Below are positions 2,170 to 45,746 of a stretch of DNA of 64,000 nucleotides, piece by piece. The DNA is taken from contig JAPOUR010000005.1 of assembly GCA_026708565.1 (NCBI GenBank), positions 32,273-96,272 on the forward strand. The letters are read 5' to 3'. How positions within the stretch are numbered: the first letter of the stretch is position 1; every line of letters starts with the position of its first letter. The stretch is from Candidatus Dadabacteria bacterium (GTDB lineage: Bacteria > Desulfobacterota_D > UBA1144 > Nemesobacterales > Mycalebacteriaceae). The position numbers and the translations under genes were made by a program. The notes under the pieces are model-generated. The model was not told the DNA's origin. It saw only the letters and a list, made by a program, of their open reading frames with translations, and did no database searches.

Positions 2170-2505
2170 ATGAGTTACTACAAACCCGAAGACCTTAAAA
2201 AATTCAACGAGGTCGGAAAATTCGCAAAGAACCTGATGGACAAGTTCTTTGACTACTACAACGCCGCCACCTCCGATGAGGGGGCTTTGACCGCCAGAGA
2301 AAAAGCGCTCATCGCCCTTGCGGTGGCGCATTCCAAACAATGCCCCTACTGCATTGACGCCTACACCAACAGATGCATTGAAACCGGCGCGGGCCCCGAA
2401 GAAATGACCGAGGCCGTTCATGTCGCCGCCTCAATGGAAGCGGGAGTTAAACTTATCCACGCGGTTCAGATGCAAAATACCCTGAAGGAAAACGGCGCGC
2501 TGTAG
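2170..2505 (+). CDS. AhpD-like / carboxymuconolactone decarboxylase family protein (CxxC), arsenosugar-biosynthesis-associated peroxidase-like
   Basis: 111 aa. CPYC redox motif in an AhpD-like helical context (ALIALAVAHSKQCPYCIDAY). RBS GGAGG upstream. Immediately precedes the rSAM/Cys-rich gene. Confidence 0.7.
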   Translation: MSYYKPEDLKKFNEVGKFAKNLMDKFFDYYNAATSDEGALTAREKALIALAVAHSKQCPYCIDAYTNRCIETGAGPEEMTEAVHVAASMEAGVKLIHAVQMQNTLKENGAL

Positions 2506-2528
2506 CCCGCCCTCCCCCCTTTTTTACA

Positions 2529-3536
2529 ATGACGGAACACAACGGCAGCAACGGCGGCGGAAGAAACTTTTCCGCATTTATCAAAGACAGAAACGTCAGC
2601 ATAACGCCGCGCTCCCTCAAAACCCTTCAGGTTAATGTTACAAAACTCTGCAATCAGGCGTGCGTCCATTGCCACGTTGACGCCTCCCCGAAACGGACCG
2701 AGCAGATGGACATCAAAACCATAAACCGCTGCCTTGAAATACTGTCGGATGAAAAAGTGGAAACGCTTGACATTACGGGCGGCGCGCCGGAACTGAATCC
2801 GCATTTTGACCACCTCGTCCGGCGGGCGGCGGAAATGGGGAAACACATTATCGTGCGCCACAACCTGACCGTTACCTTTGACGGAAATCCCGTTACCGGG
2901 GAAAGCAAGGAATACCTGCCGGAATTTTTCGCCCGGCACGGGGTTGAGGTGGTTTCCTCTCTGCCGCATTACGATGAGTATTTCACAGACAAACAGAGAG
3001 GCAGGGGCGTGTTTGAAAAAAGCGTCCGCTCCGCCCTGCTGCTTAACGAACAGGGCTACGGCGGCGAGGGAAGCGGGCTTGTTCTGAATTTCGTCCACAA
3101 CCCTCCGGGAGAGTATCTTCCGTCCGAACAGACGGGGCTTGAAAAAACATTTAAGGAAAAACTCAAGTCACGGCACGGCATTGAGTTCAACAACCTTTAC
3201 TGCATAACAAATATGCCGATAAACAGATTCCGGCAGTGGCTGATACGGGAAAACAAATACTCCTCCTACATGGACAAAATCGTGTCCGCGTTCAACCCCT
3301 CCGCCGCCGAGGGCGTGATGTGCCGCGACATGATAAGCGTTGACCATAACGGAAACCTTTACGACTGCGATTTCAACCAGATGCTCGGCATGGGCGTCCC
3401 GGCGGAAAACGGCGGAGGGGCGACCGTTTTTAATTCCTCGCATGAAAGCATTGTCGGGCGCGATATTAAATTCGGAAGCCACTGTTTCGGCTGCACGGCG
3501 GGCGGGGGAAGCAGTTGCGGCGGGCAAACCGCCTGA
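2529..3536 (+). CDS. arsS: Radical SAM / Cys-rich domain protein (ArsS-like, TIGR04167 type)
   Basis: CxxxCxxC radical SAM motif (CNQACVHC) near the N-terminus. C-terminal Cys-rich domain (CRDMISVDHNGNLYDCDF...SHCFGCTAGGGSSCGG). Confidence 0.7.
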   Translation: MTEHNGSNGGGRNFSAFIKDRNVSITPRSLKTLQVNVTKLCNQACVHCHVDASPKRTEQMDIKTINRCLEILSDEKVETLDITGGAPELNPHFDHLVRRAAEMGKHIIVRHNLTVTFDGNPVTGESKEYLPEFFARHGVEVVSSLPHYDEYFTDKQRGRGVFEKSVRSALLLNEQGYGGEGSGLVLNFVHNPPGEYLPSEQTGLEKTFKEKLKSRHGIEFNNLYCITNMPINRFRQWLIRENKYSSYMDKIVSAFNPSAAEGVMCRDMISVDHNGNLYDCDFNQMLGMGVPAENGGGATVFNSSHESIVGRDIKFGSHCFGCTAGGGSSCGGQTA

Positions 3537-3555
3537 CCACGGGAAACCAGCAACA

Positions 3556-4170
3556 TTGAACACGGTGGCGATTTTTCTCAAGCACCCCACTCCGGGAAAA
3601 GTGAAGACGCGGCTGGCAAAGCAACTGGGAAACCGGCGGGCGGCGGCGGTTTATTCCGCCATGGCGAAAGATGTTGTGAAATCGGCGGAGCGCGGAGCGC
3701 GGATTTTCTTTGACCCGCCGGAAATGGAAAAAGAAGTAAGGCGGTGGCTCGGCGGCTTTTCGGGGGCTTTCTCTCCGCAGAGCGGGGATTCGCTGGGCGG
3801 AAGAATGGCAAACGCCATCGGGCTTTGCCTTCGGGAGGGAAGCGAAAAGGTTGTTGTCATCGGGACGGACTGCCCTGACATTACACCCGCAATTATCGCC
3901 GGGGCGTTTGAGCGGCTTGACGGGGCGGATGTGGTTATAGGGCCGTGCGAAGACGGCGGCTATTACCTTATAGGAATGAGGCGGCTTTACCGGGAGTTGT
4001 TTTGCGGAATTGAATGGAGTTCAAACTCGGTAACCGCCCGGACGGTTGAAAAAGCGGAGGCGCTTTCCCTTAAGGTGAGCATGCTGCAAACACTGCGCGA
4101 CATAGATGAAGCGGAAGACCTCGGCGGGCGGTTTGAATCGTATATCCAAAACGGCGGGGAAACGTCATGA
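3556..4170 (+). CDS. DUF2064 / TIGR04282-type transferase (rSAM-Cys-rich-associated transferase 1)
   Basis: N-terminus VAIFLKHPTPGKVKTRL matches the DUF2064 family start. The track ORF from 3340 overlaps arsS and is a 5' over-extension; the start chosen here is the TTG at 3556 (or the GTG at 3565). Stop overlaps the ccdA start (ATGA). Confidence 0.6.
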   Translation: MNTVAIFLKHPTPGKVKTRLAKQLGNRRAAAVYSAMAKDVVKSAERGARIFFDPPEMEKEVRRWLGGFSGAFSPQSGDSLGGRMANAIGLCLREGSEKVVVIGTDCPDITPAIIAGAFERLDGADVVIGPCEDGGYYLIGMRRLYRELFCGIEWSSNSVTARTVEKAEALSLKVSMLQTLRDIDEAEDLGGRFESYIQNGGETS

Positions 4171-4880
4171 TTGAAACCGCCTCCCCCGCGTTCACCCTCG
4201 CCTTTCTTGCCGGCGCGGCGTCTTTTCTCTCGCCCTGCATATTTCCTCTGGTTCCCGGATACCTGTCCGCGATTGCGGCGGGCAACGCCCGCCCGGTGGG
4301 TCCTGCGGTTTTGTTTGTGGCGGGATTTTCCTCAGTATTCTCCCTCATGGGAACTTCGGCGTCCTTCGCCGGGTCTTTTCTTGCGGAATACAGGGAGACC
4401 CTTTCTGTTGTTTCCGGCGCTCTGGTGATGATTTTAGGGCTCTTCACTTTGGAGGTCATTAAAATCCCCTTCCTGATGAGGGAGCGGCGGGCGTCCGCCC
4501 CCGGCGCGGGAAGAGGGGCGGCCTATGTGTTCATGCTGGGGTGCGCCTTTGCTTTCGGGTGGACGCCGTGCATAGGGCCTATGCTTGCGTCCATACTGTC
4601 TTACGCCGCGCTGTCTCCCGAACCGTCCGGGGGGATGCTGCTTCTGCTGACCTATTCGGCGGGGCTCGGCTCGCCGTTTGTGCTTGCCGCCCTGTTCCTC
4701 GGAAGGTGGCGGTCTCTCTCGGCGCTTGTGAGCCGCTATCACTCCGTCTATAAGTATGCGGTCGGGGGGATGCTGCTGGCGGCGGGGTTCTTGATGGCGG
4801 CGGGGTTGCTGTTTTATGTGAATATCTACGGGCAGAGGTTTTTTGAGTTTCTGGGGCTTGATTTCTGGACGAGGATTTGA
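4167..4880 (+). CDS. ccdA: CcdA/DsbD-family thiol-disulfide transporter (cytochrome c biogenesis CcdA-like)
   Basis: Multi-TM protein with the hallmark FLSPCIFPLVPGYLS motif and a second conserved Cys (WTPCIGP). Confidence 0.7.
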   Translation: MIETASPAFTLAFLAGAASFLSPCIFPLVPGYLSAIAAGNARPVGPAVLFVAGFSSVFSLMGTSASFAGSFLAEYRETLSVVSGALVMILGLFTLEVIKIPFLMRERRASAPGAGRGAAYVFMLGCAFAFGWTPCIGPMLASILSYAALSPEPSGGMLLLLTYSAGLGSPFVLAALFLGRWRSLSALVSRYHSVYKYAVGGMLLAAGFLMAAGLLFYVNIYGQRFFEFLGLDFWTRI

Positions 4881-4948
4881 CGGGATTGCCGCCTGTTGAC
4901 TAATCCCCCGTCTTTCCATATATTAAGCCGCTGACGGAGAGTCTTCCA

Positions 4949-8250: not shown

Positions 8251-8583
8251 CTACCATTCTATTCCATAATTAAGTATCGTAAAAGACTTGTGGTTCTGTT
8301 TCATAACCACATTAATATGAAATATCATTTTTTTTGTCTGTGAATACATTCGCAAACTGCCTTTTATACAAGATTGTCCCTTGCATTCTATCTTTTGATA
8401 CTTTGTATATAAAAGCATATAAGTAATCTGATCTGCTACTTCTTCCAGACTTTCACTATATCTCACAAGCAATTCTGCTTCGAAGCATGCGGGGTAAATA
8501 TAGGTATAGGTGTTATCATAAATAGGATCTTGAACAAGAATAGAGTAGCATGTTTGTCCGTATTTTTCTTTTTCTAAAATCAT
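8251..8583 (-). CDS. Hypothetical protein (AT-rich)
   Basis: ORF only. Lies in the low-GC pocket between the NucS-like gene and the ankyrin gene. Confidence 0.3.
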   Translation of the reverse strand: MILEKEKYGQTCYSILVQDPIYDNTYTYIYPACFEAELLVRYSESLEEVADQITYMLLYTKYQKIECKGQSCIKGSLRMYSQTKKMIFHINVVMKQNHKSFTILNYGIEW

Positions 8584-9467
8584 GGTTGAAGCAACCTTGT
8601 GATTTCGTAAAAATCAGGATGGTCTTTATGCGCCGCTTGCCATGCATCAAAAGCCGTAACTCCGTCGACACTTGCCCGTTTATCTGCTCCCGCTTTCAGC
8701 AATGCCTGTATTGCTTCGGTTTGGCCATGAATTGCCGCAATCATCAGAGCCGTGAGTCCATAATTCTCCCTTGCCTCTATATTAACCCCTGCTTTAAGCA
8801 ATGTCTGTATTGCTTCTATGTGCCCGCCGCCGAACAACGCTGCCATCAGAACCGTTGCGCCTAAATGATTTTTTGCCTCTATATCCGCTCCCGCTTTCAG
8901 CAATACTTGTATTGCTTCGGTTTGGCCATGAAATGCCGCCTGCCTTAGAGCCGTCCCGCCGCTTATACTCTCTCTTGCCTCTATATCCGCTCCCGCTTTC
9001 AGCAATGCCTGTATTGCTTCGGTTTGGCCGCCACCTGTCGCAAGCATTAAAGCCGTCAAATCGCTTTCACTCTCTCTTGCTTCTATATCTGCTCCCGCTT
9101 TCAGCAATGCCTGTATTGCTTCGGTTTGGCCGCCACCTGTCGCAAGCATTAAAGCCGTCAAATCGCTTTCACTCTCTCTTGCTTCTATATCTGCTCCCGC
9201 TTTTAGCAACTCTCTTACTGCTTCTGTCTGCCCGAGGATCGCCGCAATCATCAGAGCCGTCCAGCCATCGTTATCCTTTGCCTCTATGTCCGCACCCGCT
9301 TTTAGTAACTCTCGTATTGCTTTAGAGTTTCCGTCCCTCGCCGCAAACATTAGAGGTGTCCAACCTCTCTCATTCACCTCGGTTTGCGACCCATAAAGAC
9401 CCGCATAGTAAGCCGCACCCATTAAAACGACAACCGCTATGGCAAACCCGTAAAATGCTCTGTTCAT
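8580..9467 (-). CDS. Ankyrin-repeat protein with N-terminal TM/signal anchor
   Basis: About 7 ANK repeats (TALM.AA..G..E.v..LLKAGADIEA). Hydrophobic N-terminus. Confidence 0.8.
   Translation of the reverse strand: MNRAFYGFAIAVVVLMGAAYYAGLYGSQTEVNERGWTPLMFAARDGNSKAIRELLKAGADIEAKDNDGWTALMIAAILGQTEAVRELLKAGADIEARESESDLTALMLATGGGQTEAIQALLKAGADIEARESESDLTALMLATGGGQTEAIQALLKAGADIEARESISGGTALRQAAFHGQTEAIQVLLKAGADIEAKNHLGATVLMAALFGGGHIEAIQTLLKAGVNIEARENYGLTALMIAAIHGQTEAIQALLKAGADKRASVDGVTAFDAWQAAHKDHPDFYEITRLLQP
8995..9198. repeat. Perfect tandem duplication, 2 x 102 bp, inside the ankyrin gene
   Basis: Two identical 102-bp units. Each encodes ARESESDLTALMLATGGGQTEAIQALLKAGADIE. Confidence 0.8.
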
Positions 9468-9551
9468 CTCTCAATCCTTCCCGTCATCGGTTTGTTGGAC
9501 GGCGAAACCCTAACGGCAATCTCCCCGTTTTGTCAACGGCACATCTCCCCA

Positions 9552-9586
9552 TCCCCTCTGGATTCCGTGCGGAGCACGGAATGACG
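9552..9586. repeat. REP-like hairpin element copy B: CCCCTCTGGATTCCGTG-CGGAG-CACGGAATGACGG
   Basis: Same element as 1964-1999, with compensatory T>G / A>C changes that keep the stem. Partial direct repeat cccatccctctg at 9606-9617. Confidence 0.5.
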
Positions 9587-9637
9587 GGGAAAGCAATACT
9601 GCTTCTCCCCCATCCCTCTGCCTCTAACCGCCAAACA

Positions 9638-10135
9638 TCAACCCGATTTATCCCGCCCCGGAAAATCAAACTCAACCACCCTTCCCTCTCCCGCCGAAAC
9701 CCCGCTCCATTTTTCCGAACCCGTTTCTATATGAACAACCCCGCAAGTCGGCATTTCTATCTCCGCTCCCGCAAGAAGGTTCGCAACCCCGCTTACCGCA
9801 AAATTGTGACAGAAAACCGCAACAGTGGAAAACCCGTCATCAACAGACCGGACGGCGGACAAAAGCCTTTCAACATCAAAGGTGTAAAACCCTTCATCCC
9901 TTACAATATCCTCAACCGAAACCCCCACCTCCCCCGCAACAATTCTCGCCGTTTCATAAGCCCTTTTCGCAACACTTGAATAAAAGGCGTCAAAATTAAC
10001 CCTTCCTGCTTTAAGCCGTTTCCCCATCTCCGCCGCCTCCGCCTTTCCCCTGTCCGAAAGCGGACGTTTCGAATCATCCGCAACCCCCGACTTCCTTCCG
10101 CTGTGGGCGTGCCTTATCAGAAAAAGCGTTTTCAC
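9638..10135 (-). CDS. Histidine phosphatase family protein (SixA-like)
   Basis: N-terminal LIRHAHSG (RHG motif). 165 aa. 4-bp overlap with the upstream otsBA gene. Confidence 0.7.
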   Translation of the reverse strand: MKTLFLIRHAHSGRKSGVADDSKRPLSDRGKAEAAEMGKRLKAGRVNFDAFYSSVAKRAYETARIVAGEVGVSVEDIVRDEGFYTFDVERLLSAVRSVDDGFSTVAVFCHNFAVSGVANLLAGAEIEMPTCGVVHIETGSEKWSGVSAGEGRVVEFDFPGRDKSG

Positions 10136-12336
10136 TTAACCCTCGCCAACCGATGCACAAACTGCCGCGCCTCTGTGACCGAAGGCGTATAAAACCTCGC
10201 CCTGCTCGGTCGCCCGTGCCCGACCTTGATTGAATAAGCATAAGACGGAAGCGCCGAAAACATATCCTCATCCGTAACATCATCCCCCATTGCAATCGCG
10301 CAATCCCACCCGCCGCCTGAAAACCACGGGAGAACACCCGCGCCCTTGTTGACCGACAAATCCCCCACCTCAACAATCTTGTTTCCCTGCGTTACCCTGA
10401 CATTGAGATTTTGCACCATTCCGGCGAGCGCCTCGTTAATCTCCCCCACCCTCACAACCGCAAGCGCGGGGTCAACCTTTCTGTAATGCCACACAAGAGA
10501 ATAGTTTTTTTCCTCCACAAACGAGCCGGGAGTTCTGTCGGAAAATATCTCAAGCACGGACAAAACCTCTTTTTTCCAACCCGGCGTTTCGGGAGAAGTG
10601 CGCCGCCATTTCCCCCCGTCTCTTATCCACGCGCCATGCTCGGCAATGATGCAGTTGCTCACTTTCCCAAGCCAGCGGGAGAGGGTTTTTCTGTCTCTGC
10701 CGCTCACTATCACAAGTTTGATTTTCGGATTCGCGGCAACGGCTCGCAGACTTTTTAATATCTCATCATCGGGCTTTGCGTCTTCGGGGTTCTCCCTGAA
10801 AGAAACAAGCGTGCCGTCATAGTCCAGCAACACTATGGACTTTTTGCCCCTTCTTACCTTTCCGATGATTTCATCCGCCGCCCGCTTTGACAAAATCCTT
10901 GAAGACATGGCGGACTGCATGCGCCTTGTCTGCCGCAGTTTGTCCAGAAAATCGCGCGTCCACTTGGCAAGGTCGTATCTGACAAGCCGCCGCCTCATCG
11001 CCTCCATTCGCTGCTTGCGCTCCGCTGTGGGCGTCTCCAGAGCCGCGCGAAGCGCCCCCGCCGTGGCGGAAAAGTCATTCGGGTTGACTATGAACGCCTC
11101 TCCAAGCTCCCTTGAAGTGCCCGCCATCTCGCTCAAAATAAGCGCCCCCCGCCCGTCCGGGCGTGAAGCGACATACTCTTTTGCAATCAGATTCATCCCG
11201 TCCCGGACGGGGGTTATGAAAAGAACATCCGCAAGCGCGTAAAGGGAAACCATCTCCCGGAAACTGAAAGAGCGGTAAAGGTATTTAATCGGCTCCCAGT
11301 TCATTGTTCCCCACTTGCCGTTGATTTCACTCACCATCCGCTCAATTTCTGAGCGCAGAGTTTTGTAACTCTCAACATCGGAGCGCGAAGGGACTGCGAC
11401 AAGCAGAAGAACCGCCCTGCCCCGCCAGTTCGGGTTTTCCTTTAAGAACAAGTCAAACGCCTCAAGCCGCCTGTCTATGCCCTTTGTGTAATCCAGCCGG
11501 TCAATGGAAAGAATTACGCGGCAGTTCGGGGAAAAAAGGCGCGACTTTTTCCTGATGCTGTTTTTCACGGACTCCAGTTTGAGGGCGGAGGAAAACTTTT
11601 TCACATCCACGCCCATGGGGAACATGTCCGCTTTGACAAGGCGGGAGCCGACATTGAAAACGCCCATTGAGTTTTCAATTCTCTTGATTCGCCTCACGCT
11701 CTCTGAAAAATGCCGCACATAGTCAAAGGTGTGAAAGCCCACAAGGTCCGCCCCTAACATGCCGTCAAGGATTTCCGCCGCGCCCGGAAGCATTCTGAAA
11801 ATTTCGGAGGAAGGGAAAGGTATGTGAAGAAAGAACCCGATCTCGGCATCGGGAAGCCGCTCCCTCAAAAGCGAGGGAAGAAGCATCAGGTGGTAGTCGT
11901 GAACCCATATTGTGTCATTCCCGTCCGCCACTTCAAGAACGGCTTTTGCAAACTTTTTGTTCACCTTCCGGTATGCGTTAAAAAAGTGTTTGTCATATTC
12001 GGCAATCTGAGGGAAGTAGTGAAAGAGCGGCCAGAGGGTTGAGTTGCAAAAGCCGTTGTAGTAACCCTCGGTCTCCGCATCATCCAGAAAAACGGGATGA
12101 AGGCCGGGCCCAAGCAGCCGCTTTATCTCTTGCGTCCGCCCGGGGCTCATTCCGGAAGACGAAACGCCGGGCCAGCCCACCCACACGGCGTCTGCGCCGA
12201 AGTTCGCGCCGCCGATGCCCGTGGCAACCCCGCCTATGTTGCGCTTGAGGGAAACTCCCCCCGCGCCGGTGTTCGCCGCGCCAACCTTTGCGGAGAGGGG
12301 CGGGCGGTTTGAGACTGTGATTATTTTTCCTGCCAT
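10132..12336 (-). CDS. otsA: Bifunctional trehalose-6-phosphate synthase / trehalose-6-phosphatase (OtsA-OtsB fusion)
   Basis: N-terminal GT20 OtsA domain (IITVSNRPP...). C-terminal HAD TPP domain (SIVLLDYDGTLV). Start taken at MAGKII to avoid overlap with the divergent tlpA-like gene. Confidence 0.85.
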   Translation of the reverse strand: MAGKIITVSNRPPLSAKVGAANTGAGGVSLKRNIGGVATGIGGANFGADAVWVGWPGVSSSGMSPGRTQEIKRLLGPGLHPVFLDDAETEGYYNGFCNSTLWPLFHYFPQIAEYDKHFFNAYRKVNKKFAKAVLEVADGNDTIWVHDYHLMLLPSLLRERLPDAEIGFFLHIPFPSSEIFRMLPGAAEILDGMLGADLVGFHTFDYVRHFSESVRRIKRIENSMGVFNVGSRLVKADMFPMGVDVKKFSSALKLESVKNSIRKKSRLFSPNCRVILSIDRLDYTKGIDRRLEAFDLFLKENPNWRGRAVLLLVAVPSRSDVESYKTLRSEIERMVSEINGKWGTMNWEPIKYLYRSFSFREMVSLYALADVLFITPVRDGMNLIAKEYVASRPDGRGALILSEMAGTSRELGEAFIVNPNDFSATAGALRAALETPTAERKQRMEAMRRRLVRYDLAKWTRDFLDKLRQTRRMQSAMSSRILSKRAADEIIGKVRRGKKSIVLLDYDGTLVSFRENPEDAKPDDEILKSLRAVAANPKIKLVIVSGRDRKTLSRWLGKVSNCIIAEHGAWIRDGGKWRRTSPETPGWKKEVLSVLEIFSDRTPGSFVEEKNYSLVWHYRKVDPALAVVRVGEINEALAGMVQNLNVRVTQGNKIVEVGDLSVNKGAGVLPWFSGGGWDCAIAMGDDVTDEDMFSALPSYAYSIKVGHGRPSRARFYTPSVTEARQFVHRLARVK

Positions 12337-12397
12337 TTTTCCGGCGCTCTGGCAATATCCGGGCGGATAATGTAATACTATACGCGAAGCGGGCGGT

Positions 12398-12922
12398 ATG
12401 AGAACAGTAACGCGAGTCATCAGCGCGGCGCTCATCGCCGTTGTCGCAGTCTTAATTGTTTACTCTTTTGAAAGGCGTCTCTCCGGACAGCGCGGAGACT
12501 GGCCGGACTCTCCCCTGATTGGCAAGCCCGCGCCCGGCTTGCGGCTGACCCTGTTTGACGGAAAAAAGTTTGACATTGCCGGTGCGCCGGGGCGGCCTGT
12601 GGTGCTGAACTTCTGGGCGTCATGGTGTCTTCCGTGCGCTCAGGAGGCGGAAGAACTCAACAGGGCGCAAAGGGCGTACGGAAAAGATGCCGTCATTATG
12701 GGCGTCAATGTTATGGATGACAGGGAAGCCGCGCTTGAGTTCATCGCGAGGCACGGCGTTGAATACCCGAACGGCTACGACCCGGACAAAGCCGTCCACA
12801 TTGATTACGGTGTCGCGGGCGTTCCGGAAACCTTTTTCATCTCTCCCGACGGCAGGATAGTGAGCAAGATATCGGGTCCCGTAACCTTTGCCGAAATATC
12901 ATCGGGACTGAGGCAAAATTGA
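12398..12922 (+). CDS. TlpA/ResA/CcmG-like thiol:disulfide oxidoreductase (membrane-anchored thioredoxin fold)
   Basis: N-terminal TM helix. WASWCLPC active site. Confidence 0.75.
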   Translation: MRTVTRVISAALIAVVAVLIVYSFERRLSGQRGDWPDSPLIGKPAPGLRLTLFDGKKFDIAGAPGRPVVLNFWASWCLPCAQEAEELNRAQRAYGKDAVIMGVNVMDDREAALEFIARHGVEYPNGYDPDKAVHIDYGVAGVPETFFISPDGRIVSKISGPVTFAEISSGLRQN

Positions 12923-12963
12923 CACCGCCCGCTTTGCCGTAAAAAATTGTCCCGTCCTGTGTT

Positions 12964-14442
12964 ATGAACCTTGCCCAGCTTACAGCAAACGCCTCTCTGA
13001 TAGCCCCGGAGATTGCGCTGTGCATTGCGGGACTTGTCCTCGCCGTTGCCGCGCCCGTATTGAAAACCGTCTCTGAACAGAGGCGCGGGACGATCTTCTG
13101 CGCCGTTGCGCTTATCGGGTTTGCCATCGCCTTTGTTCTCAACGCGGACAGGTTCGGCGGCGCGGAGAGCGCGTTTTCCGGCACTCTTTACCTTGATGAT
13201 TTCTCCGCTTTTTTCAACTCCATATTTCTTGCAAGCGCGGCGGCGGCGTCCCTTTTTGCCGCCTCTTACATAAGAGAATCCGAGCGGCTTGGAGAGTTTC
13301 TCGCCCTTGTCTCGCTGTGTGTGCCGGGGATGATGCTGATGGCCGAATCGGTTGAGTTCGTGTCGCTTTTCGTTTCGTTTGAAGTGGTTTCAATCTGCGC
13401 CTACGCCCTTGCCGGATTTTCGTCCCGAACCGTTGCCCCCGCCGAGGCGGGGATTAAGTATCTGGTTACGGGAGGGTTTTCCTCCGCCGTTATGCTTCTG
13501 GGCATCGCGCTGCTTTACGGCGGGACGGGAAGTCTGGAATTCGGCGTCATATCGGGCGCGTTTGAAGCCTCGCCGTCAAATCCGATGTTGCTTGCGGGCG
13601 CGGCTCTTGTGTTTACGGGCTTCATATTCAAGGCGGGCGCCGCCCCCCTTCATCAGTGGATTCCCGATGTTTACCACGGCGCGCCCATGCCTGCGACCGC
13701 TTTTATGTCCGTGGGCGTCAAGGTGGCAGCGATTGCGGTTCTGGCAAGGTTTGTCGTGGAAATAGGGTCAGCCGGGCAGTGGGCGCTTCCGGTGATAGTC
13801 AGCGCGGTTGCCGCGGTAACCATGCTTGCCGGAAACATATCGGCCATAGCGCAGAGCAATGTGAAGAGAATGCTCGCATATTCAAGCGTCGCCCATGTGG
13901 GGTATGTTCTGGTCGGTGTCGCCGCCTATTTGTCCGGGGACGACCCGGCGGGGCTTTCCGGCGTTTTCTATTACTCTTACGCCTATGCGGCGGTCAGCCT
14001 CGGCGCGTTCGGGTTGCTGTCCGTTCTTGGAAGAGACGGAAACGAATACCAGACTTTCGGCGACATATCAGGGCTGTGGCGGACAAAACCCGCCGCCGCA
14101 TTGGCTCTTGCGGTGTTTATGTTTGCGCTCGCGGGAGTTCCTCCGACCATAGGTTTTTTTGCAAAATACCGGGTCTTCCTTCCGGCGGCGCAGGAGGGAT
14201 TGCACTTTCTGGTGGTGTTTGCCCTTGTCAACAGCGTGGTCTCCGCCTACTACTATTTGAAGGTTGCGGTGTTCGCGTTTATGAAGCCGGTGTCAAAACA
14301 GCAGACCGCCGGATGGAAAGCGGGGCTCGGAGCGCGCGCGGCGGTCGCCTTATTGTGCGTTGTAACCCTGCTGCTGGGGATTGCGCCGTTTGACACGGCG
14401 GGGCTTGCCGAATCCGCCGCGCGGGCGCTGACTTTACGATGA
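12964..14442 (+). CDS. nuoN: NADH-quinone oxidoreductase subunit N (NuoN / Mrp antiporter-like)
   Basis: 492 aa, 14 TM. Matches the NuoN-type antiporter-like subunit. Confidence 0.8.
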   Translation: MNLAQLTANASLIAPEIALCIAGLVLAVAAPVLKTVSEQRRGTIFCAVALIGFAIAFVLNADRFGGAESAFSGTLYLDDFSAFFNSIFLASAAAASLFAASYIRESERLGEFLALVSLCVPGMMLMAESVEFVSLFVSFEVVSICAYALAGFSSRTVAPAEAGIKYLVTGGFSSAVMLLGIALLYGGTGSLEFGVISGAFEASPSNPMLLAGAALVFTGFIFKAGAAPLHQWIPDVYHGAPMPATAFMSVGVKVAAIAVLARFVVEIGSAGQWALPVIVSAVAAVTMLAGNISAIAQSNVKRMLAYSSVAHVGYVLVGVAAYLSGDDPAGLSGVFYYSYAYAAVSLGAFGLLSVLGRDGNEYQTFGDISGLWRTKPAAALALAVFMFALAGVPPTIGFFAKYRVFLPAAQEGLHFLVVFALVNSVVSAYYYLKVAVFAFMKPVSKQQTAGWKAGLGARAAVALLCVVTLLLGIAPFDTAGLAESAARALTLR

Positions 14443-16707: not shown

Positions 16708-17442
16708 TCAACTAGAACTTCTTTTAAGGTGTTTGCGGATGACATCTTTTACATAGTCTGGCACTTCCTTCTGGGCTTTGGAAACTTCTTTCATGAGAAA
16801 CTCATACTCTTTGACTTCCTCGCCAGACCATAAGATGTCAAGCCTCCGCATGTCACGCATCGCGATATGCTTATAAGATTCTGGGTAGGCCCAGTAGCAC
16901 TGTTGGCATGTCTCAGCCTTCTTGATTGTCCAATTAGCACAATTCTCACAACTCCATGATTTCGCCCTGTTTGCAGACGCGCATAGAAGCATATAGTCAT
17001 CCATATTACTTGAAAGATCACTTTGGTCTCCCACAATTTCAAAAGGGATTCTGTGATCAATTTGCAATTCCCTTGGGGGAAATGATTCAAGGTAAATATT
17101 GCACCGTGCGCCGTGCTTCTCAATCAGTGTATTTTTCATGCTTGAAGAAAACGCCGTACGACCAGAAAGTTGTGCAGACCGGATTTCTGATGGGTCTCCA
17201 AACTTATATGCAGCGATTTTCCTTCCATCCGAACCGATGGCACGGAAAGTTTTAATAGGCACACCTTGTTCTCTCACATCTCTTATAGCACGAGGAGGAT
17301 GGTTGTAGCCATAAATGTCCTTCAATTCCTCGGTTGTTACCTGACCATGTTTGAGGATATGGTCAATAACTGTTTTGGGACGCTTGGCATTAATACTCTT
17401 CAGCAAAGCAAGAAACTTCTTGGGGTAACTTTGCTTAGTCAT
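16708..17442 (-). CDS. HNH endonuclease (putative type II restriction endonuclease)
   Basis: LQIDHRIPFEIVGD...LLCASANRAKS HNH core with flanking CxxC pairs. Co-operonic with the Dam-family MTase. Confidence 0.65.
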   Translation of the reverse strand: MTKQSYPKKFLALLKSINAKRPKTVIDHILKHGQVTTEELKDIYGYNHPPRAIRDVREQGVPIKTFRAIGSDGRKIAAYKFGDPSEIRSAQLSGRTAFSSSMKNTLIEKHGARCNIYLESFPPRELQIDHRIPFEIVGDQSDLSSNMDDYMLLCASANRAKSWSCENCANWTIKKAETCQQCYWAYPESYKHIAMRDMRRLDILWSGEEVKEYEFLMKEVSKAQKEVPDYVKDVIRKHLKRSSS

Positions 17443-18449
17443 GCAAATATAATCTCTTGTTGCTTTCTATTACTAACACACAAAGCGGGGCCTTCATACC
17501 GTAGTCTATTCACCAAAGGATCAGACAAGTACAGGGATTCAATGGTCTGATGGTTTTTGCCCAACAATGTCGCTTGACTGGATCTGCCTGCATAGATTGT
17601 GGTGTGTTGAAGGCGGAGGTGTTTCGGGAGTGGTTTTCCATGCATTCTTTCACCAGTAATACCATCGTAGCTTATGATGTATGAGATGTTTCTTTTGTTC
17701 ATAACCGCAAGTGCATCCACGAAATCATCGTAAGACAAGCCATTGATGTATCTATGGTCCCTTGTAAACGATGTGCCTTGATAGGGTGGGTCCATGTAAA
17801 CCAAATCGTTCTCGCCAGCCCTTTCCACTATCACTTGAAAGTCCATTGCAGATGTGCTGGTTTTTCCAGCCAAAAGTGCTGACACGCCCAATATGTTTTG
17901 TCTCATTGTGTGGGGTTTCATTCCTGAACGCCTGTTATCCGCACTCTGATTGAATTTGCCGTCAGAACTGTATCTGATAGAGCCTTTTACAATCCGTGCC
18001 AATAAGTAAAGCAAGTAGCAAGGTTTGTGTGCGATGTTGAACTCATCCCTCACTTTCAGAAAGTAAGACTTTCTATCTGAATGTTGCTCACTCCACAGTC
18101 TTTCATATTCGTCACACAAGTCTTTTGGTCGCTCTAATATCTCCACCCATAAGTCCATCAGGGGTTTATTCAAATCATTTAGTGAAATTGTTTCCATCAT
18201 TCCGTAAGCGGCAGCGGCAATAGAGATAGCCCCGGCGCCACAAAACGGCTCTATTAAGCATTTGGTATCAGACGGAAAGTAAGGGAGGATGTACTTAGCA
18301 ATGCCTCGCTTGCTTCCCTGATACGGAAATGGGTGTGGTAACTTGCGTAAGTTGCAGTACGGGTCAATCTCTTGTAATTGATACAAGGGTTGATGCGACA
18401 TGTCTTTGCTATTGAGTTCTTTCATGTGTCTTACTTGAAATTGTAACAT
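17439..18449 (-). CDS. Dam-family (D12 class) N6-adenine DNA methyltransferase
   Basis: FPYQGSKRGIAKYILPYFP and EPFCGAGA (SAM-binding). DPPY catalytic motif (VYMDPPYQG). Confidence 0.8.
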   Translation of the reverse strand: MLQFQVRHMKELNSKDMSHQPLYQLQEIDPYCNLRKLPHPFPYQGSKRGIAKYILPYFPSDTKCLIEPFCGAGAISIAAAAYGMMETISLNDLNKPLMDLWVEILERPKDLCDEYERLWSEQHSDRKSYFLKVRDEFNIAHKPCYLLYLLARIVKGSIRYSSDGKFNQSADNRRSGMKPHTMRQNILGVSALLAGKTSTSAMDFQVIVERAGENDLVYMDPPYQGTSFTRDHRYINGLSYDDFVDALAVMNKRNISYIISYDGITGERMHGKPLPKHLRLQHTTIYAGRSSQATLLGKNHQTIESLYLSDPLVNRLRYEGPALCVSNRKQQEIIFA

Positions 18450-18596
18450 AAATGACCTGATACGCTACTGTGGAAAACAGTACAAGGCGATCTGGCAGAT
18501 TCTGGCCTTACCACTTGGGTGTCAATTGAATTCAGTTGATATATTGAGTTTCTACCTTGGTTTCTTGCTTATAATTGTTCAACATAAGGAGATACT
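18450..18596. promoter_or_regulatory. AT-rich divergent promoter region between the MTase and SIR2 genes, with a near-palindrome CAATTGAATTCAGTTG
   Basis: 14/16 palindromic around GAATTC. Strong RBS AAGGAG 8 nt before the ATG at 18597. Confidence 0.3.
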
Positions 18597-21500
18597 ATGC
18601 AATTTGTAAAAGGTGGTCCTGACATTCCAGAACAGTTGCTACAGGCGCACGAAGATGGGCAAGTAGCCTTTTTCTGTGGGGCCGGGATTTCTTACCCAGC
18701 AGGCTTGCCTGGCTTTGCCGACCTAGTGAAACAACTCTATGATAACTTGGTGGGCACACGCAATGAGGTGCAACAATCGGCAATAGAGGCCAAGAAGTTT
18801 GATACTGCGATAGGCTTATTGGAAGCAGATATTGCTGGTGATCGCGGGAAAGTAAGAAGGGAACTGGCAAGTATTCTAACCCCAGACATCAGTGACCCGA
18901 AGAGTGCCGAGAAAGCAACCGCGACTCACGAAGCCCTGTTGACGCTAGGCAGGAACCGCGAGGGACAAATGCGGTTGGTCACTACTAACTTTGACCGTCT
19001 TTTTGAGGAAGTAATCGCCACAAAATCACTGTCGGTCAACCGCTCTCAGGCACCACAGTTGCCAATTCCGAAGAACAGATGGGACAGGCTGGTGTATCTA
19101 CATGGTCTGTTGCCCGATACCAACCCACCCATGCCAAACGATCTGGATAGTCTGGTTGTCTCCAGTGGCGACTTTGGGTTGGCCTATCTTACGGAACGTT
19201 GGGCAGCGCGATTCGTGAGCGAACTGTTTCGCAACTATATTGTATGCTTTGTCGGTTACAGCATCGGCGACCCAGTATTGCGCTATATGATGGACGCTCT
19301 TGCTGCTGACCGTTTGCTCGGTGAGTCGCCACCGGAAATGTTTGCTTTTGGTAGTTACTCCAAAGGCAAGGAAGAGAAGGTCTACAACGAATGGCGGGCC
19401 AAAAATGTTACACCCATTCTCTATCGGGAGCACAATCGTCACTCCTACCTTCACAGAACACTGCGGGATTGGGCCGACAAATACAGAGATGGTGTGGGCG
19501 GGAAAGAAAGCATTGTTGTGCGATATGCAATGACACGTCCATCGAAGAGCACCAAGCAAGATGACTTTGTTGGTCGTATGCTATGGGCACTGAGCGACCA
19601 GACTGGACTCCCAATGAAGCGCTTCGCCGAGTTTAATCCGGTTCCACATCTGGATTGGCTCTTGGAACCTTTTAGTGAAGACCGCTACAAACATGTTGAC
19701 TTGGAGCGCTTTGGTGTTTCTTCTGGAACAGAGGTTGATAACGACCTTAAATTCAGTCTGGTTTCCAGACCATCACCTTACAGTCTGGCACCATGGATGG
19801 TCATCTCTGATACTGGTTCTCTTGGTAGTAAATGGGATAACATTATGCAACACTTGGCACGGTGGTTGGTACGTCATCTTGATGACCCTGCTCTGGTGCT
19901 TTGGTTGGCTAAACAGGGTGGTCAACTGCATAAGGACCTGATCCGGGTGGTAGAACAATGCTTGCACAAACTTGCTAAGTATGAGCAAGACGGTGATACG
20001 ACCACGATAGACCGTATTCGTAACAATGCACCCAAGGCAATTCCCGGGCCACACATGCGAACGCTATGGCGGCTTCTGCTTGCTGGGCGCGTTAAATCGC
20101 GTAAATCGCAGACACAAAGCAATGATTTCTACCAATGGCATAAGCGCTTTGAGCGAGACGGACTCACCACAACTTTACGGTTTGAACTACGTGAGATACT
20201 TACACCACGAGTATCTATAAGTGAACCACTTTTCCGTTTGCCAACAGGTGATAGCGAAAATCAAAAGCCAGAGTGTCTAAGCGAGCTTGTTAGTTGGGAG
20301 ATTGTGCTTTCGGCAGGCCCTATCCATTCCAAATTGAATGACTTGAATGATAACGAGCGCGAGCGTTGGACTGCGGCCTTACCGGAATTGCTGACCGATT
20401 TTAGCGCCTTATTGCGCGATGCCTTGGATTTGATGCGTGAACTTGGTGGCGCGGACAACAAGAGCGACCCGTCTTTTGAGTATCAACCTTCAATCAGTAA
20501 GCACCGGCAGAATAGGGGATTTCACGAATGGACTTCTTTGATAGACCTAGCTCGGGACGCATGGTTGGCCACAGCCGAGCAATCACCGCAACATGCATTA
20601 CTCGTGGCAGAGGCATGGTGGCAAACGCCCTATCCTCTTTTTAAGCGTCTCGCATTTTTTGCCGCTACACAGGGCGGTGTAGTAACCCATCGCCGCGCAC
20701 TTGACTGGTTGCTCGCAGATGAAAAGTGGTGGTTGTGGTCAGATAAAACCCGGCGTGAATCCATACGACTGCTGGCTGTCTTGGCTCCACAAATTGATGA
20801 ACCGATGTTGCGAGAACTTGAGCAGGCGGTCCTTGCCGGGCCACCCCTCAACATGTTCAGAGACAATATGACCCCGGAAGACAGGGACATTGTTGACAAA
20901 AAAATCTGGCTACGACTGGCAGAGATGGTTCAATCTGGTGCTGGTTTGAGCTCCACAGGCCAAGAACGTCTGAATGCGCTCTCTGTCCAGCACCAACTTG
21001 CTGAAGATGAACGTGATGAATTTCCAGACCGGATGGAGAGCGGTGTTTGGGGTGGACGAAAGCCTTGGCTACAGTTTGAACCGATACCGAGTGGCGACCT
21101 AGATGGGTTGGTAAACTACTTGACAGAAAACCACCATCCTGCCGAAGGAAGAGAGGATGACTGGCAAGAACTTTGCAAAAATGATTTTGAGAACACAGCA
21201 CAAGCCTTACACCATTTTGCCAGAAAAAACATTTGGCTTGACCAACGCTGGGGGGACGCTTTACGGGTCTGGTCATCAGATGAAAAAGTGCGCGAGACTT
21301 TATGGCGATCCGTCGCACCCGTATTAACCACAGCTCCCGATGACTTTCTACAGAACAAGGATGTCACCTACGGAGTTGGTTGGTGGTTGAAAGCCATTGC
21401 CAAAACCTTTGAGGGCCATGAAGAAGAGTTTCTAATCCTCACGCGCCGTATCCTGAGTCTGAAATATCAGGATAATGCCAAGACCGACGACCCTGTCAAC

Positions 21501-22439
21501 CTCGCCATCAATCATCCAGTAGGCTATGTAACGCAGGCGTTGTTAGATTGGTGGTATCGGCAGACCTTGGAAGATAAACAAGGTCTGCCGGAGAAACTCA
21601 AACCCATATTCACTGAACTTTGTGATACCCAAACCAGTCAGTTTCGACATGGCCGTGTTTTGTTAGCGCACCATGTTATCAATTTGTTTCGCGTAGACCG
21701 CGAGTGGACAATACAGCACTTGTTGCCGTTATTTAACTGGCAACAGTCAGAAACAGAAGCACGGGCAGTCTGGGAAGGTTTCCTGTGGTCACCCCGCCTA
21801 TACTACCCTCTGATGGAGGAACTCAAGTCGGACTTTCTCAATACTGCAACCCACTATGAGGATCTGGAAAACCACGGTAAGCAGTATTATGCGCGGATTC
21901 TCACCTTTGCGGCTCTTGACCAGAGTGGCAGTAGCACATTCACTCAAACTGAACTTAAGCGAGCTACTGACGCGCTCTCTACAGACGGGTTATGTGAAGT
22001 AGCCCAAGCACTCGTGATAGAGTTGGAAAGCGCAAGTGAGCAACGCACTAACTATTGGACAAACCGAGTCGTCCCATACCTGAAATCCATTTGGCCAAAA
22101 GACAAGGACAAAATTACTCCCGACATTTCCACAAGCCTCGGCAGTCTATGTGTCTCGGCGTCGGAAAAGTTTCCGGATGCGCTTGACCTTCTACGTCACT
22201 GGCTTCAACCGTCAGAAGGACACAGTTTTCTAGTCCATAAACTTTGTGATTCTGACTTGTGTAAAGAGTTTCCAGAGGAATCTCTGGAATTCTTGAGACT
22301 GGTCATCAACGATAATAGTGAATGGCCGCCCTATGAACTTAAAGACTGTCTTGAGGATATAAAAACTAATAATCCTGCATTGGAAAAAGATCTTCGGTAT
22401 GAAAATTTAATGACTTATCTGCGTCAGCACCCCATATAG
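18597..22439 (+). CDS. SIR2-like (SIR2_2) domain protein, 1280 aa, with a ~980-aa helical C-terminal region; DSR-like candidate anti-phage NADase
   Basis: N-terminus: FFCGAGISYPAGLPGFADLV, RLVTTNFDRLFEE, LVYLHGLL...LVVSSGDF. No P-loop. Lies in the low-GC island next to the R-M pair. Confidence 0.7.
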   Translation: MQFVKGGPDIPEQLLQAHEDGQVAFFCGAGISYPAGLPGFADLVKQLYDNLVGTRNEVQQSAIEAKKFDTAIGLLEADIAGDRGKVRRELASILTPDISDPKSAEKATATHEALLTLGRNREGQMRLVTTNFDRLFEEVIATKSLSVNRSQAPQLPIPKNRWDRLVYLHGLLPDTNPPMPNDLDSLVVSSGDFGLAYLTERWAARFVSELFRNYIVCFVGYSIGDPVLRYMMDALAADRLLGESPPEMFAFGSYSKGKEEKVYNEWRAKNVTPILYREHNRHSYLHRTLRDWADKYRDGVGGKESIVVRYAMTRPSKSTKQDDFVGRMLWALSDQTGLPMKRFAEFNPVPHLDWLLEPFSEDRYKHVDLERFGVSSGTEVDNDLKFSLVSRPSPYSLAPWMVISDTGSLGSKWDNIMQHLARWLVRHLDDPALVLWLAKQGGQLHKDLIRVVEQCLHKLAKYEQDGDTTTIDRIRNNAPKAIPGPHMRTLWRLLLAGRVKSRKSQTQSNDFYQWHKRFERDGLTTTLRFELREILTPRVSISEPLFRLPTGDSENQKPECLSELVSWEIVLSAGPIHSKLNDLNDNERERWTAALPELLTDFSALLRDALDLMRELGGADNKSDPSFEYQPSISKHRQNRGFHEWTSLIDLARDAWLATAEQSPQHALLVAEAWWQTPYPLFKRLAFFAATQGGVVTHRRALDWLLADEKWWLWSDKTRRESIRLLAVLAPQIDEPMLRELEQAVLAGPPLNMFRDNMTPEDRDIVDKKIWLRLAEMVQSGAGLSSTGQERLNALSVQHQLAEDERDEFPDRMESGVWGGRKPWLQFEPIPSGDLDGLVNYLTENHHPAEGREDDWQELCKNDFENTAQALHHFARKNIWLDQRWGDALRVWSSDEKVRETLWRSVAPVLTTAPDDFLQNKDVTYGVGWWLKAIAKTFEGHEEEFLILTRRILSLKYQDNAKTDDPVNLAINHPVGYVTQALLDWWYRQTLEDKQGLPEKLKPIFTELCDTQTSQFRHGRVLLAHHVINLFRVDREWTIQHLLPLFNWQQSETEARAVWEGFLWSPRLYYPLMEELKSDFLNTATHYEDLENHGKQYYARILTFAALDQSGSSTFTQTELKRATDALSTDGLCEVAQALVIELESASEQRTNYWTNRVVPYLKSIWPKDKDKITPDISTSLGSLCVSASEKFPDALDLLRHWLQPSEGHSFLVHKLCDSDLCKEFPEESLEFLRLVINDNSEWPPYELKDCLEDIKTNNPALEKDLRYENLMTYLRQHPI

Positions 22440-25211: not shown

Positions 25212-25919
25212 ATGACCAAACCACCCTGCGAACTGAACATCTTCATCACCTGCATGCGCGAGGAGGAAAATCTGAAAATCCTCCTGCCGCGTCTTATTGG
25301 CATTCTTGATGACTACGGAATCACTTACAGGATATTAGTTGTGGACACCGTAACCCCGATGGACGGAACTCCTGAGGTGTGCGCCGGTTTTGAAAACGTT
25401 GACTATGTGCCGACAGACGGAGGGAAAGACGGATACGGCAGAGCGGTGCGGACGGGCATCGGAAGAGTCAATGCGCAATACGCGATACTGATGGACGGAG
25501 ACCTTTCCCATCCGCCCGAAGTTATTCCCTCAATGCTTGACCTGAGAGAGAGCCACGACATGGTTATCGCCTCGCGCTACACCGAAGGCGGCGGCTCGGA
25601 AGATTACTTTCTTAACCACCTTATGTCCCGCGCCCTCAACATCTTTTGCTCCACGCTTCTGGGAATTGACTGCAAAGACTGGTCAACCAGTTTCAAACTT
25701 TACAAAGCCCCGCAAATTAAAGCCCTGCCGCTTGCGTGCGAGCACTTTGACATACATCAGGAAATCATCTGCAAACTTCACGAAAACCACCCGGACTTCA
25801 AATTTGCGGAAGTGCCCATGTCATTTTCAAAGCGGGTTCACGGCTCTTCAACCCGCCAGTTTTCCTACGGATTTTCAATCGCAAAAACAATTCTGAAACT
25901 GCGGCTGGGCCTTATGTGA
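25212..25919 (+). CDS. Family 2 glycosyltransferase (dolichyl-phosphate mannosyltransferase-like)
   Basis: GT-A fold with LMDGDLSHPP (DxD-type). Confidence 0.75.
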   Translation: MTKPPCELNIFITCMREEENLKILLPRLIGILDDYGITYRILVVDTVTPMDGTPEVCAGFENVDYVPTDGGKDGYGRAVRTGIGRVNAQYAILMDGDLSHPPEVIPSMLDLRESHDMVIASRYTEGGGSEDYFLNHLMSRALNIFCSTLLGIDCKDWSTSFKLYKAPQIKALPLACEHFDIHQEIICKLHENHPDFKFAEVPMSFSKRVHGSSTRQFSYGFSIAKTILKLRLGLM

Positions 25920-32235: not shown

Positions 32236-33068
32236 TGAAAAAATATCTCTCTTTTGTGAAGTTTGAACACACCCTGTTTTCTCTTCCGCTGGTGGCGGCG
32301 GGCGCAATGCTGGCGGCGGGCGGCGTTCCGGACGTTCGCATTGCGGCGCTCATAGTTGCGGCGGCGGCGGGGGCGAGAACCGCTGCAATGGCGGTAAACA
32401 GAATTGTTGACGCCGCCGTGGACGCGGCAAATCCCAGAACCGCGGGCAGGGAGATTCCGGCGGGAAAAATAAGCCGGGGCGAGGCGTATGCGGTAACAGG
32501 CGCGGGCCTTGCCGTGTATTTCGGGGCGGCGTATATGATATGCCCTTTTGTGTTCCTGCTCTCCCCGTTTCCGGTGGCGGTGTTCTCCGCCTATCCTTAT
32601 ATGAAAAGGATAACGCCGCTGTGCCACCTCGGAGTCGGGTTCGCGCTTGCGCTTGCCCCGGCGGGCGGCTGGCTCGCCGTGCGGTGCGCGGCGGATGAAA
32701 TTTTTGCGCCCTTGATGCTCGGCCTGTTCACACTGTTGTGGGTGTCGGGGTTTGACGTCATCTATTCAACCGCCGATGAGGATTTTGACAGGGCAAACGG
32801 GTTGCATTCGGCGGCGGTCTCTCTCGGCGCGCGGGGCGCGCGGCGGGTCTCGGCGGCGCTTCACGCAGGCGCGGCGATTCCTCTGGCGGCGCTGCAAATA
32901 CTGGAATTCGGCGGGAATATGTTTTCCCTCGCCGCCCTTGCGGCCGTCTGCGCCGTTCTGGCGGCGGAGAGCAGAGCGGCGGACAACATCGGCTTTGCCT
33001 TTTTCAAACTGAACGCGGTTTGCGGGGCGCTTGTTTTAGTTTTCATTCTGTGCGGGATATACTTGTGA
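32235..33068 (+). CDS. UbiA-family prenyltransferase (MqnP-like)
   Basis: Multi-TM UbiA fold. 1-nt overlap with the uvrA stop. Confidence 0.7.
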   Translation: MKKYLSFVKFEHTLFSLPLVAAGAMLAAGGVPDVRIAALIVAAAAGARTAAMAVNRIVDAAVDAANPRTAGREIPAGKISRGEAYAVTGAGLAVYFGAAYMICPFVFLLSPFPVAVFSAYPYMKRITPLCHLGVGFALALAPAGGWLAVRCAADEIFAPLMLGLFTLLWVSGFDVIYSTADEDFDRANGLHSAAVSLGARGARRVSAALHAGAAIPLAALQILEFGGNMFSLAALAAVCAVLAAESRAADNIGFAFFKLNAVCGALVLVFILCGIYL

Positions 33069-33081
33069 GAGAGGTCGGGAT

Positions 33082-33633
33082 TTGAGAACAATAATCGGCA
33101 TAACCGGGGCTTCGGGGGCCGTCTATGCGGTTGATTTTCTGAGACGCTGCGAAGGGGAGAAGTATCTGGTCGCAAGCAAATGGGGCAAAGCCGTTCTGAA
33201 CGAGGAAATGGGGGTCAAAATGGAGGAACTCGGACAGTGGGCGGATAAAACCTTCAGCGATTCCGACCTCGCCTCGCCGTTTTCATCGGGAAGCAATCAC
33301 TTTGACTCAATGGTCATAGTTCCCTGCTCCGTTTCCACTCTTGCCAAAATCGCAAACGGAATAGCCGACACTCTCATAACAAGAATCGCCCAGGTGGCGC
33401 TCAAGGAAAAGCGCAAACTGATTATAGCGTTAAGGGAGACGCCGCTCAGCACCGTCGCCCTTGAGAACGCCGCCCGCCTCTCATCCTACGGGGCGACAAT
33501 AATGCCCGTAAGCCCGCCCTCTTATACCGGGGCAAAAACCGCCGAAGAACTCGCGCGCGCCTTTGTGGACAGGCTCATTTCCGTCTCGTCAAACAAACAT
33601 GCGGACGGCTGGCGAAGCGGTGAACTTGAGTGA
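33082..33633 (+). CDS. ubiX: UbiX-family flavin prenyltransferase
   Basis: IIGITGASGAVYAV flavoprotein motif. Confidence 0.85.
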   Translation: MRTIIGITGASGAVYAVDFLRRCEGEKYLVASKWGKAVLNEEMGVKMEELGQWADKTFSDSDLASPFSSGSNHFDSMVIVPCSVSTLAKIANGIADTLITRIAQVALKEKRKLIIALRETPLSTVALENAARLSSYGATIMPVSPPSYTGAKTAEELARAFVDRLISVSSNKHADGWRSGELE

Positions 33634-45636: not shown

Positions 45637-45648
45637 ATATCTTTTTTT

Positions 45649-45723: not shown

Positions 45724-45746
45724 AGACGCCTAATCCGGCAAGCGTG

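Follow-up and report, generated by a model that had tools for sequence, protein, structure and literature searches.

An ArsS gene cluster without a linked arsM in a Candidatus Dadabacteria genome: gene loss from an ancestral operon and upkeep of a core triad

A cluster of four genes built around a predicted arsS gene, which encodes an arsenosugar-type radical S-adenosylmethionine (SAM) enzyme, lies at positions 2170 to 4880 of a 64,000-nucleotide stretch of a Candidatus Dadabacteria genome (GCA_026708565.1, contig JAPOUR010000005.1, positions 32,273 to 96,272), hereafter called the window. All four open reading frames (ORFs) were found at their listed positions, co-oriented on the + strand. 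The first gene (2170..2505) encodes a 111-aa AhpD-like small thiol-redox protein of the CMD family with a CPYC motif (C58 and C61). It is followed by arsS (2529..3536; 335 aa), whose product combines a radical SAM domain with a C-terminal Cys-rich DUF3641 domain and is of the cysteine rather than the selenocysteine form. The third gene (3556..4170) encodes a predicted GT-A-like (CofC-like) transferase of the DUF2064/TIGR04282 family, and the fourth (4167..4880) encodes CcdA, a membrane thiol-disulfide electron transporter of the DsbD_TM family. The same identities and gene order had been read from the sequence by the first-pass annotation and were confirmed by matches to TIGR04169, TIGR04167, TIGR04282, and PF02683.

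The genes are closely packed. The gap between ahpD and arsS is 23 nt. The listed ORF for the DUF2064 protein opens at 3340, inside arsS, which ends with its stop codon at 3534-3536; the profile match, and the way the gene is called on two public contigs of nearly the same sequence, place the true start at TTG 3556 or GTG 3565, which leaves a gap of approximately 20-29 nt. An ATGA start/stop overlap is present only at the junction of the DUF2064 gene and ccdA (4167-4170), so the translational coupling proposed for the cluster in the first-pass annotation holds there and not at the other junctions. In GC content, the cluster (0.54-0.56) does not differ from the window as a whole. A promoter and terminator scan gave no convincing promoter upstream of ahpD, and its terminator-like matches were intragenic and were disregarded. 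Between the ccdA stop codon and the following Zn-ribbon gene, a promoter-like site on the + strand (TTGACT-17-TATATT, 4896..4924; 10/12 in a consensus scan) is likely to mark the downstream boundary of the four-gene unit, as judged from the consensus match only. No riboswitch or leader was detected near the cluster in an Rfam scan, which found only three tRNAs in the window (45561-45820).

ArsS matched TIGR04167 ('arsenosugar biosynthesis radical SAM (seleno)protein ArsS') at 402 bits against a cutoff of 300, over profile positions 2-302 of 303, and its Pfam domains are Radical_SAM and DUF3641. The cysteines of the CxxxCxxC motif (C41, C45, and C48), together with C265, C280, C319, C322, and C330, were invariant in 87 of 87 aligned sequences. 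A set of 82 other ArsS proteins has 110 positions with a conservation of 90% or more; the window protein agrees at 107 of them, and the three exceptions are L to I or L to F. A PDB search with ArsS returned distant radical SAM cores (YydG) only and no informative structure. Equivalog-level membership and the 107 conserved positions together predict that this enzyme carries out 5'-deoxyadenosylation of the trivalent dimethylated arsenical DMAs(III) to 5'-deoxy-5'-dimethylarsinoyl-adenosine (DDMAA). Public annotation already labels the database copy of the protein 'arsenosugar biosynthesis radical SAM protein ArsS [Candidatus Dadabacteria bacterium]'.

The two partner genes are preserved as well. 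The AhpD-like protein matched TIGR04169 ('arsenosugar biosynthesis-associated peroxidase-like protein') at 157 bits (cutoff 120) and Pfam CMD; its CPYC cysteines were invariant in 54 of 54 homologues, and it agrees with all 32 positions of at least 90% conservation. It also weakly matches NF041537 and NF045649, two NCBIfam models in which an AhpD domain is fused to an ArsM-type methyltransferase. The DUF2064 protein matched TIGR04282 at 194 bits (cutoff 134), Pfam DUF2064, and, weakly, CofC. It keeps 13 of 13 conserved positions and aligns with PDB 3CGX (E=6e-30), a 'putative nucleotide-diphospho-sugar transferase' from structural genomics and the sole DUF2064 structure. Comparisons among the window and two related loci (L004 and L005) gave dN/dS values of 0.03-0.06 for ahpD, 0.06-0.11 for arsS, and 0.23-0.27 for the DUF2064 gene, with 0.03-0.05 for the neighboring malic enzyme gene, at synonymous sites that are saturated (dS>1.2). 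The AhpD-like, ArsS, and DUF2064 triad is thus under purifying selection across lineages that lack a linked ArsM, and neither decay nor altered specificity is visible in the alignments.

CcdA matched the six-TM domain PF02683 (DsbD_TM) at 47 bits, above the gathering score of 27, and aligned nearly full length (residues 8-223, E=1.6e-29) with the solved CcdA of Thermus thermophilus (5VKV). Its translation contains both PCxxP cysteine motifs, 'SPCIFP' and 'TPCIGP'. A gene for a DsbE/ResA-like periplasmic thioredoxin lies at 12398-12922, 7.5 kb from the cluster. The CcdA of a deeper-branching Dadabacteria locus (L006, 12240-12995) is a weak match (42 bits, cutoff 200) to the NCBIfam model for the organoarsenical efflux permease ArsG, which seems to share the DsbD_TM fold; the CcdA of the window gave no match to this model at E<=0.001.

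Every sequence-level membership test placed the four products in the ArsS, TIGR04169, TIGR04282, and CcdA families. The feature of a complete pathway that the locus lacks, within the window, is ArsM. In agreement with the first-pass annotation, no arsM was found in the 64 kb, either by tblastn with a Dadabacteria ArsM (best E=1.0) or by scanning the six-frame translation with a hidden Markov model (HMM) built from 143 ArsM-like sequences (best E=6.3). In the comparison loci, by contrast, the same HMM picked up 23 ArsM genes, with scores of 357-567 bits. Searches by tblastn found no arsM remnant in the 214-bp region upstream of ahpD, in the rest of the window, or in L001, L004, and L005, and regular expressions for SAM-methyltransferase motif I identified no methyltransferase among all ORFs of at least 80 aa. 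NCBIfam scans of most likely-gene ORFs of at least 150 aa in the window detected no ars genes; they showed housekeeping functions (nuo, pdxA/J, glyA, uvrA, menaquinone synthesis by the futalosine pathway, ftsH, folP/C, glmM, glnS, ilvE, and der) and a small defense island.

Relatives of the window indicate how this arrangement arose. The same ArsS protein as in the window is encoded on a contig of GCA_026708365.1, a metagenome-assembled genome of a 'Candidatus Dadabacteria bacterium'; DNA identity to the window is 97% for this contig and 99.9% for a Logan contig. The next relatives, with ArsS proteins 73-79% identical, include members of Candidatus Mycalebacterium (class Dadabacteria) such as Ca. 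M. zealandia. In three deeper-branching loci (L006, L007, and L090), with ArsS approximately 60% identical, the gene order is a HAD gene on the opposite strand, then a methyltransferase, the AhpD-like protein, ArsS, the DUF2064 protein, a ResA-like thioredoxin, CcdA, in some cases a Zn-ribbon protein, malic enzyme, and HAD. This methyltransferase is homologous to ArsM: all of its top NCBIfam matches are arsenite methyltransferase models, below their cutoffs (236 versus 263 bits), it aligns with the crystallized ArsM of Cyanidioschyzon (E=5e-36), and the YGCG, SNCV, and GEC cysteine motifs are conserved. By contrast, five genomes of a Mycalebacterium-like clade, namely the window (with its near-identical copies L001-L003), L004, L005, L088, and L089, lack arsM and the ResA-like gene at the syntenic site. 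In L004, L005, L088, and L089 only approximately 15-60 bp separate the HAD gene from ahpD. Because syntenic loci with and without arsM share the same flanks, arsM can be placed at the head of the operon and its loss assigned to the clade of the window. On this synteny the ancestral Dadabacteria operon was arsM-ahpD-arsS-DUF2064-resA-ccdA; arsM was demonstrably deleted from it in that clade, and resA was cleanly lost as well.

Both edges of the cluster have changed further. The left flank of the window is rearranged relative to the rest of the clade, and synteny is broken precisely at the left end of the cluster, where relatives carry HAD(-)-gmk-relA. This site is occupied in the window by a gene directly upstream of ahpD (39-1955, + strand) for a 638-aa repetitive protein with weak similarity to trimeric autotransporters (Ata/YadA). 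At the right edge, ccdA and the Zn-ribbon gene are separated in the GCA_026708365.1 contig by a 657-bp insertion that carries a DUF4760 gene (L001 2851-3507). This insertion is absent from the window at 4880-4896 and represents strain-level variation. L089 has lost the CcdA adjacency and keeps ahpD, arsS, and a full-length DUF2064 gene. Downstream of its triad, a giant LRR/cadherin-like/He_PIG protein of more than 3700 aa (8603-13002) replaces ccdA, malic enzyme, and HAD.

To place the cluster in a wider context, 80 ArsS loci (L008-L087) from many taxa were collected by scanning one genome per GTDB species. Neighboring genes were clustered by homology within this analysis without prior labels, and recurrent clusters were named with NCBIfam; one cluster ('c7'), an apparent antisense ORF artefact over the ahpD position, was not counted. 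The order AhpD-like, ArsS, DUF2064 was the commonest among the 80 loci. Recurrent clusters corresponded to TIGR04169, TIGR04282, an ArsM-like methyltransferase, and TIGR04283 (representative 215 bits, cutoff 182). Also recurrent beside ArsS were a purine-nucleoside phosphorylase (NF006054, 359 bits), a 'rhodanese near glycosyltransferase' protein (NF045521), and a Pit-type transporter. Neighbors within 10 kb were counted at the 30 fully flanked loci (at least 9 kb on each side) outside the recognized Dadabacteria set. An AhpD-like gene was present at 25 of the 30, DUF2064 and TIGR04283 genes at 13 each, an ArsM-like gene at nine, a nucleoside phosphorylase at four, and CcdA at none. At ten of these loci the AhpD-like gene was the only partner of ArsS.

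ArsM was therefore more than 10 kb from ArsS, or absent, at 21 of the 30 loci. A missing nearby ArsM is the majority state and hence no evidence for an unusual product. The first-pass annotation had taken the missing ArsM to leave the product of the cluster open; given this frequency and the absence of any sign of changed specificity in ArsS, that argument does not hold. No neighbor is linked to ArsS more tightly than the CxxC protein, whether ArsM is present or not. Since the AhpD-like protein and ArsS (with DUF2064) survived the loss of ArsM under purifying selection, the CxxC protein appears to be tied to ArsS and not to methylation. In the richer loci, the phosphorylase fits a removal of adenine from the ArsS product before glycosidation, the order of steps in a pathway proposal quoted in PMC10456119.

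We consider it probable, though far from secure, that the cluster is a native and intact ArsS neighborhood reduced to its core triad, in which ArsS adenosylates DMAs(III) made by an unlinked ArsM or by other organisms. Under this scheme, the substrate would be DMAs(III), supplied by an arsM at another site in the genome or by other organisms. The CPYC protein would act with ArsS, because the two are paired almost obligatorily even where ArsM is absent, and it could plausibly keep or make the arsenical trivalent by reducing DMAs(V). ArsS would then cleave SAM reductively, and the 5'-deoxyadenosyl radical would add to the arsenic atom to give DDMAA. Such a redox-neutral reaction of ArsS with DMAs(III) is described in a review (PMC13598754) with reference to Cheng et al. 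2021, a study on ArsS also cited in PMC12159101. The ArsS characterized in that study is the only one for which the activity is known. The GT-A/CofC-like DUF2064 enzyme may subsequently turn the adenosyl arsenical toward a ribosyl arsenical. CcdA would stand outside this route as a periplasm-directed exporter of thiol reductant of the cytochrome c maturation type, placed downstream only through phylum-specific operon synteny.

Several points weigh against this reading. To our knowledge, no experiment has been reported on any non-cyanobacterial ArsS or on any TIGR04169 or TIGR04282 protein. Neither a TIGR04283 transferase nor a nucleoside phosphorylase nor any ars resistance protein is encoded in the window, and compared with the richest loci the part of the pathway that follows ArsS is incomplete. 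The search for arsM covered the 64 kb of the window, and the DMAs(III) may be made by an unlinked ArsM or reach the cell from its surroundings. In addition, CcdA adjacency is kept in seven of eight Dadabacteria genomes over deep divergence, with overlapping start and stop codons in the window, and CcdA may have a functional link with the module inside Dadabacteria.

Two alternatives concern the origin of the methylated arsenic. The cell may possess an ordinary complete pathway in which arsM was relocated elsewhere in the genome and arsenosugar precursors are made from arsenite by the cell alone. We give this a real though minority chance: separation of ArsM from ArsS is common in other taxa (the 21 loci above), the triad is under purifying selection, and the window is part of a genome whose relatives have contigs reaching 1.16-1.40 Mb. 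Weak evidence against a vertically inherited copy comes from the best 120 listed relatives of the Dadabacteria ArsM (to approximately 54% identity), none of which traced to ArsS contigs of the Mycalebacterium clade, whereas at least ten traced to contigs that carry ArsS in other lineages. A diverged arsM, or one gained by horizontal transfer, would escape this comparison. The opposite proposal is that the clade lacks arsM in its whole small genome and that the triad turns dimethylarsenic from the host or other members of the holobiont into adenosyl- or ribosyl-arsenicals, with the CPYC protein as a DMAs(V) reductase that enables scavenging. We regard it as rather doubtful.

Two further alternatives would change the chemistry. 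CcdA, with ResA in deeper Dadabacteria, might be a true part of the module that recycles the CPYC protein or handles thiol-reactive trivalent arsenicals across the membrane, by electron transfer or Cys-pair transport. Its ATGA overlap with the DUF2064 gene, its adjacency in the window, L004, L005, L088, L006/7, L090, and L008, the presence of a ResA-like thioredoxin after the cluster in a single unrelated locus as well (L039), and the weak ArsG match of the L006 protein point in this direction. The same proposal is hard to reconcile with the absence of CcdA within 10 kb at all 30 fully flanked loci outside Dadabacteria and with the triad of L089, which is kept without CcdA. The only CcdA near ArsS among all 79 loci was in L008, with Dadabacteria-like gene order and identities. 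Furthermore, the sequence is typical of CcdA (5VKV) and lacks the ArsG match in the window, and CcdA/DsbD proteins pass electrons out toward the periplasm, away from the cytoplasm in which ArsS and the AhpD-like protein reside. We therefore think it unlikely that CcdA is a pathway partner, as the first-pass annotation had supposed. It is probably a phylum-specific neighbor that is co-transcribed only through inherited gene order and, judging from its sequence, most likely serves periplasmic thiol reduction in the manner of CcdA-ResA/CcmG. A substrate switch after the loss of ArsM, in which inorganic or monomethyl arsenite, another metalloid, or a thiol-reactive species would be adenosylated to a new product, would fit the long upkeep of the triad after arsM was deleted and the absence from the window of the second glycosyltransferase and the nucleoside phosphorylase of richer loci. 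It is very improbable, given that the conserved positions are kept in ArsS (107/110), AhpD (32/32), and DUF2064 (13/13), and many unrelated genomes have the same ArsM-less architecture, for which no special explanation is needed.

The ArsM-ArsS arsenosugar pathway of Synechocystis sp. PCC 6803, reportedly described by Xue et al. in 2019, is among the closest known systems. It shares with the window the TIGR04167 equivalog (402 bits), the CxxxCxxC motif, and the five conserved C-terminal cysteines, and the same conversion of DMAs(III) to DDMAA would be expected. The window differs in that it has no adjacent arsM, which was deleted in the clade, and in its organism, a heterotrophic Dadabacteria of the sponge-symbiont type rather than a cyanobacterium; the system is known here from sequence alone. 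In the neighborhood defined by NCBIfam/TIGRFAMs (TIGR04167, TIGR04169, TIGR04282, and TIGR04283, with NF038099 for ArsM), to which the first-pass annotation had rightly assigned the cluster, three families are represented here by contiguous, co-oriented genes above cutoff, and TIGR04283, ArsM, and the purine-nucleoside phosphorylase, rhodanese, and Pit transporter of some loci are missing. ArsL, the noncanonical radical SAM enzyme of arsinothricin biosynthesis, likewise forms a C-As bond, but it belongs to another family and transfers a 3-amino-3-carboxypropyl group to arsenite; no ArsL-type match was found in the window. For CcdA, the nearest comparisons are the T. thermophilus protein and the CcdA-ResA/CcmG modules of cytochrome c maturation, with which it shares the near full-length 5VKV alignment and both PCxxP cysteines. 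In deeper Dadabacteria, a ResA-like lipoprotein thioredoxin is encoded immediately upstream of CcdA; in the window, the adjoining ResA-like gene has been lost and ccdA is translationally coupled to a gene of the arsenic pathway.

The families, their neighborhood, and this protein are already named in public annotation, and what is added here is modest: the lineage-specific deletion of arsM and resA from a six-gene operon, the long-term upkeep of the remaining triad, and an indication that the CxxC protein belongs with ArsS. For the arsenosugar steps after ArsS, and for the roles of the AhpD-like and DUF2064 proteins, we know of no tests, and no paper that we found addresses them. The minimal maintained unit, an AhpD-like protein and ArsS with or without DUF2064, offers a compact three-gene system for heterologous reconstitution.

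The ecological setting gives the cluster some interest beyond an otherwise routine and already annotated locus. Candidatus M. zealandia lives in symbiosis with the sponge Mycale hentscheli. Dadabacteria are recognized as sponge symbionts in the literature, and we infer a sponge association for the genome of the window. Arsenosugars and further organoarsenicals are present in sponges, and which organisms produce them is under debate (PMC4340220). In the literature searched, there was no mention of Mycalebacterium and no relevant paper linking Dadabacteria to arsenic metabolism. Should arsM truly be missing from the genome, the lineage would rely on methylated arsenic from others and would be a candidate contributor to sponge organoarsenicals. 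If the cross-organism pathway is true, a non-cyanobacterial source of the arsenosugars reported from sponges would be possible. As a separate observation, the window encodes at 8580-9467 (- strand) a 295-aa ankyrin-repeat protein with near-identical internal repeats, of a type typical of sponge symbionts.

Elsewhere in the window, a GT2 glycosyltransferase gene at 25212-25919 had been suggested in the first-pass annotation as the second associated transferase. It gave no TIGR04283 match at E<=0.001 in NCBIfam, and a local HMM built from 21 true TIGR04283-type neighbors scored it at only 16 bits, so it was rejected as the TIGR04283 partner. Its best matches, far below cutoff, are to AglJ and dolichyl-phosphate-hexose-transferase models, and it sits between nuoA and pdxA, 20 kb from the cluster.

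The small defense island (16708-22439) lies beside ftsK. It includes a full-length Dsr1 anti-phage sirtuin (18597-22439; NF041818, 1805 bits, cutoff 1400) and, on the opposite strand, a Dam-family DNA methyltransferase (17439-18449) that scores 111.6 bits, just below the cutoff of 114.85, and a 244-aa protein without an assigned family (16708-17442). Contiguous genes of the futalosine route to menaquinone are found at 32232-36481 and encode a UbiA-like prenyltransferase, UbiX, an SCO4490-type UbiD decarboxylase, and MqnE. An OtsA/OtsB fusion is encoded at 10132-12435.

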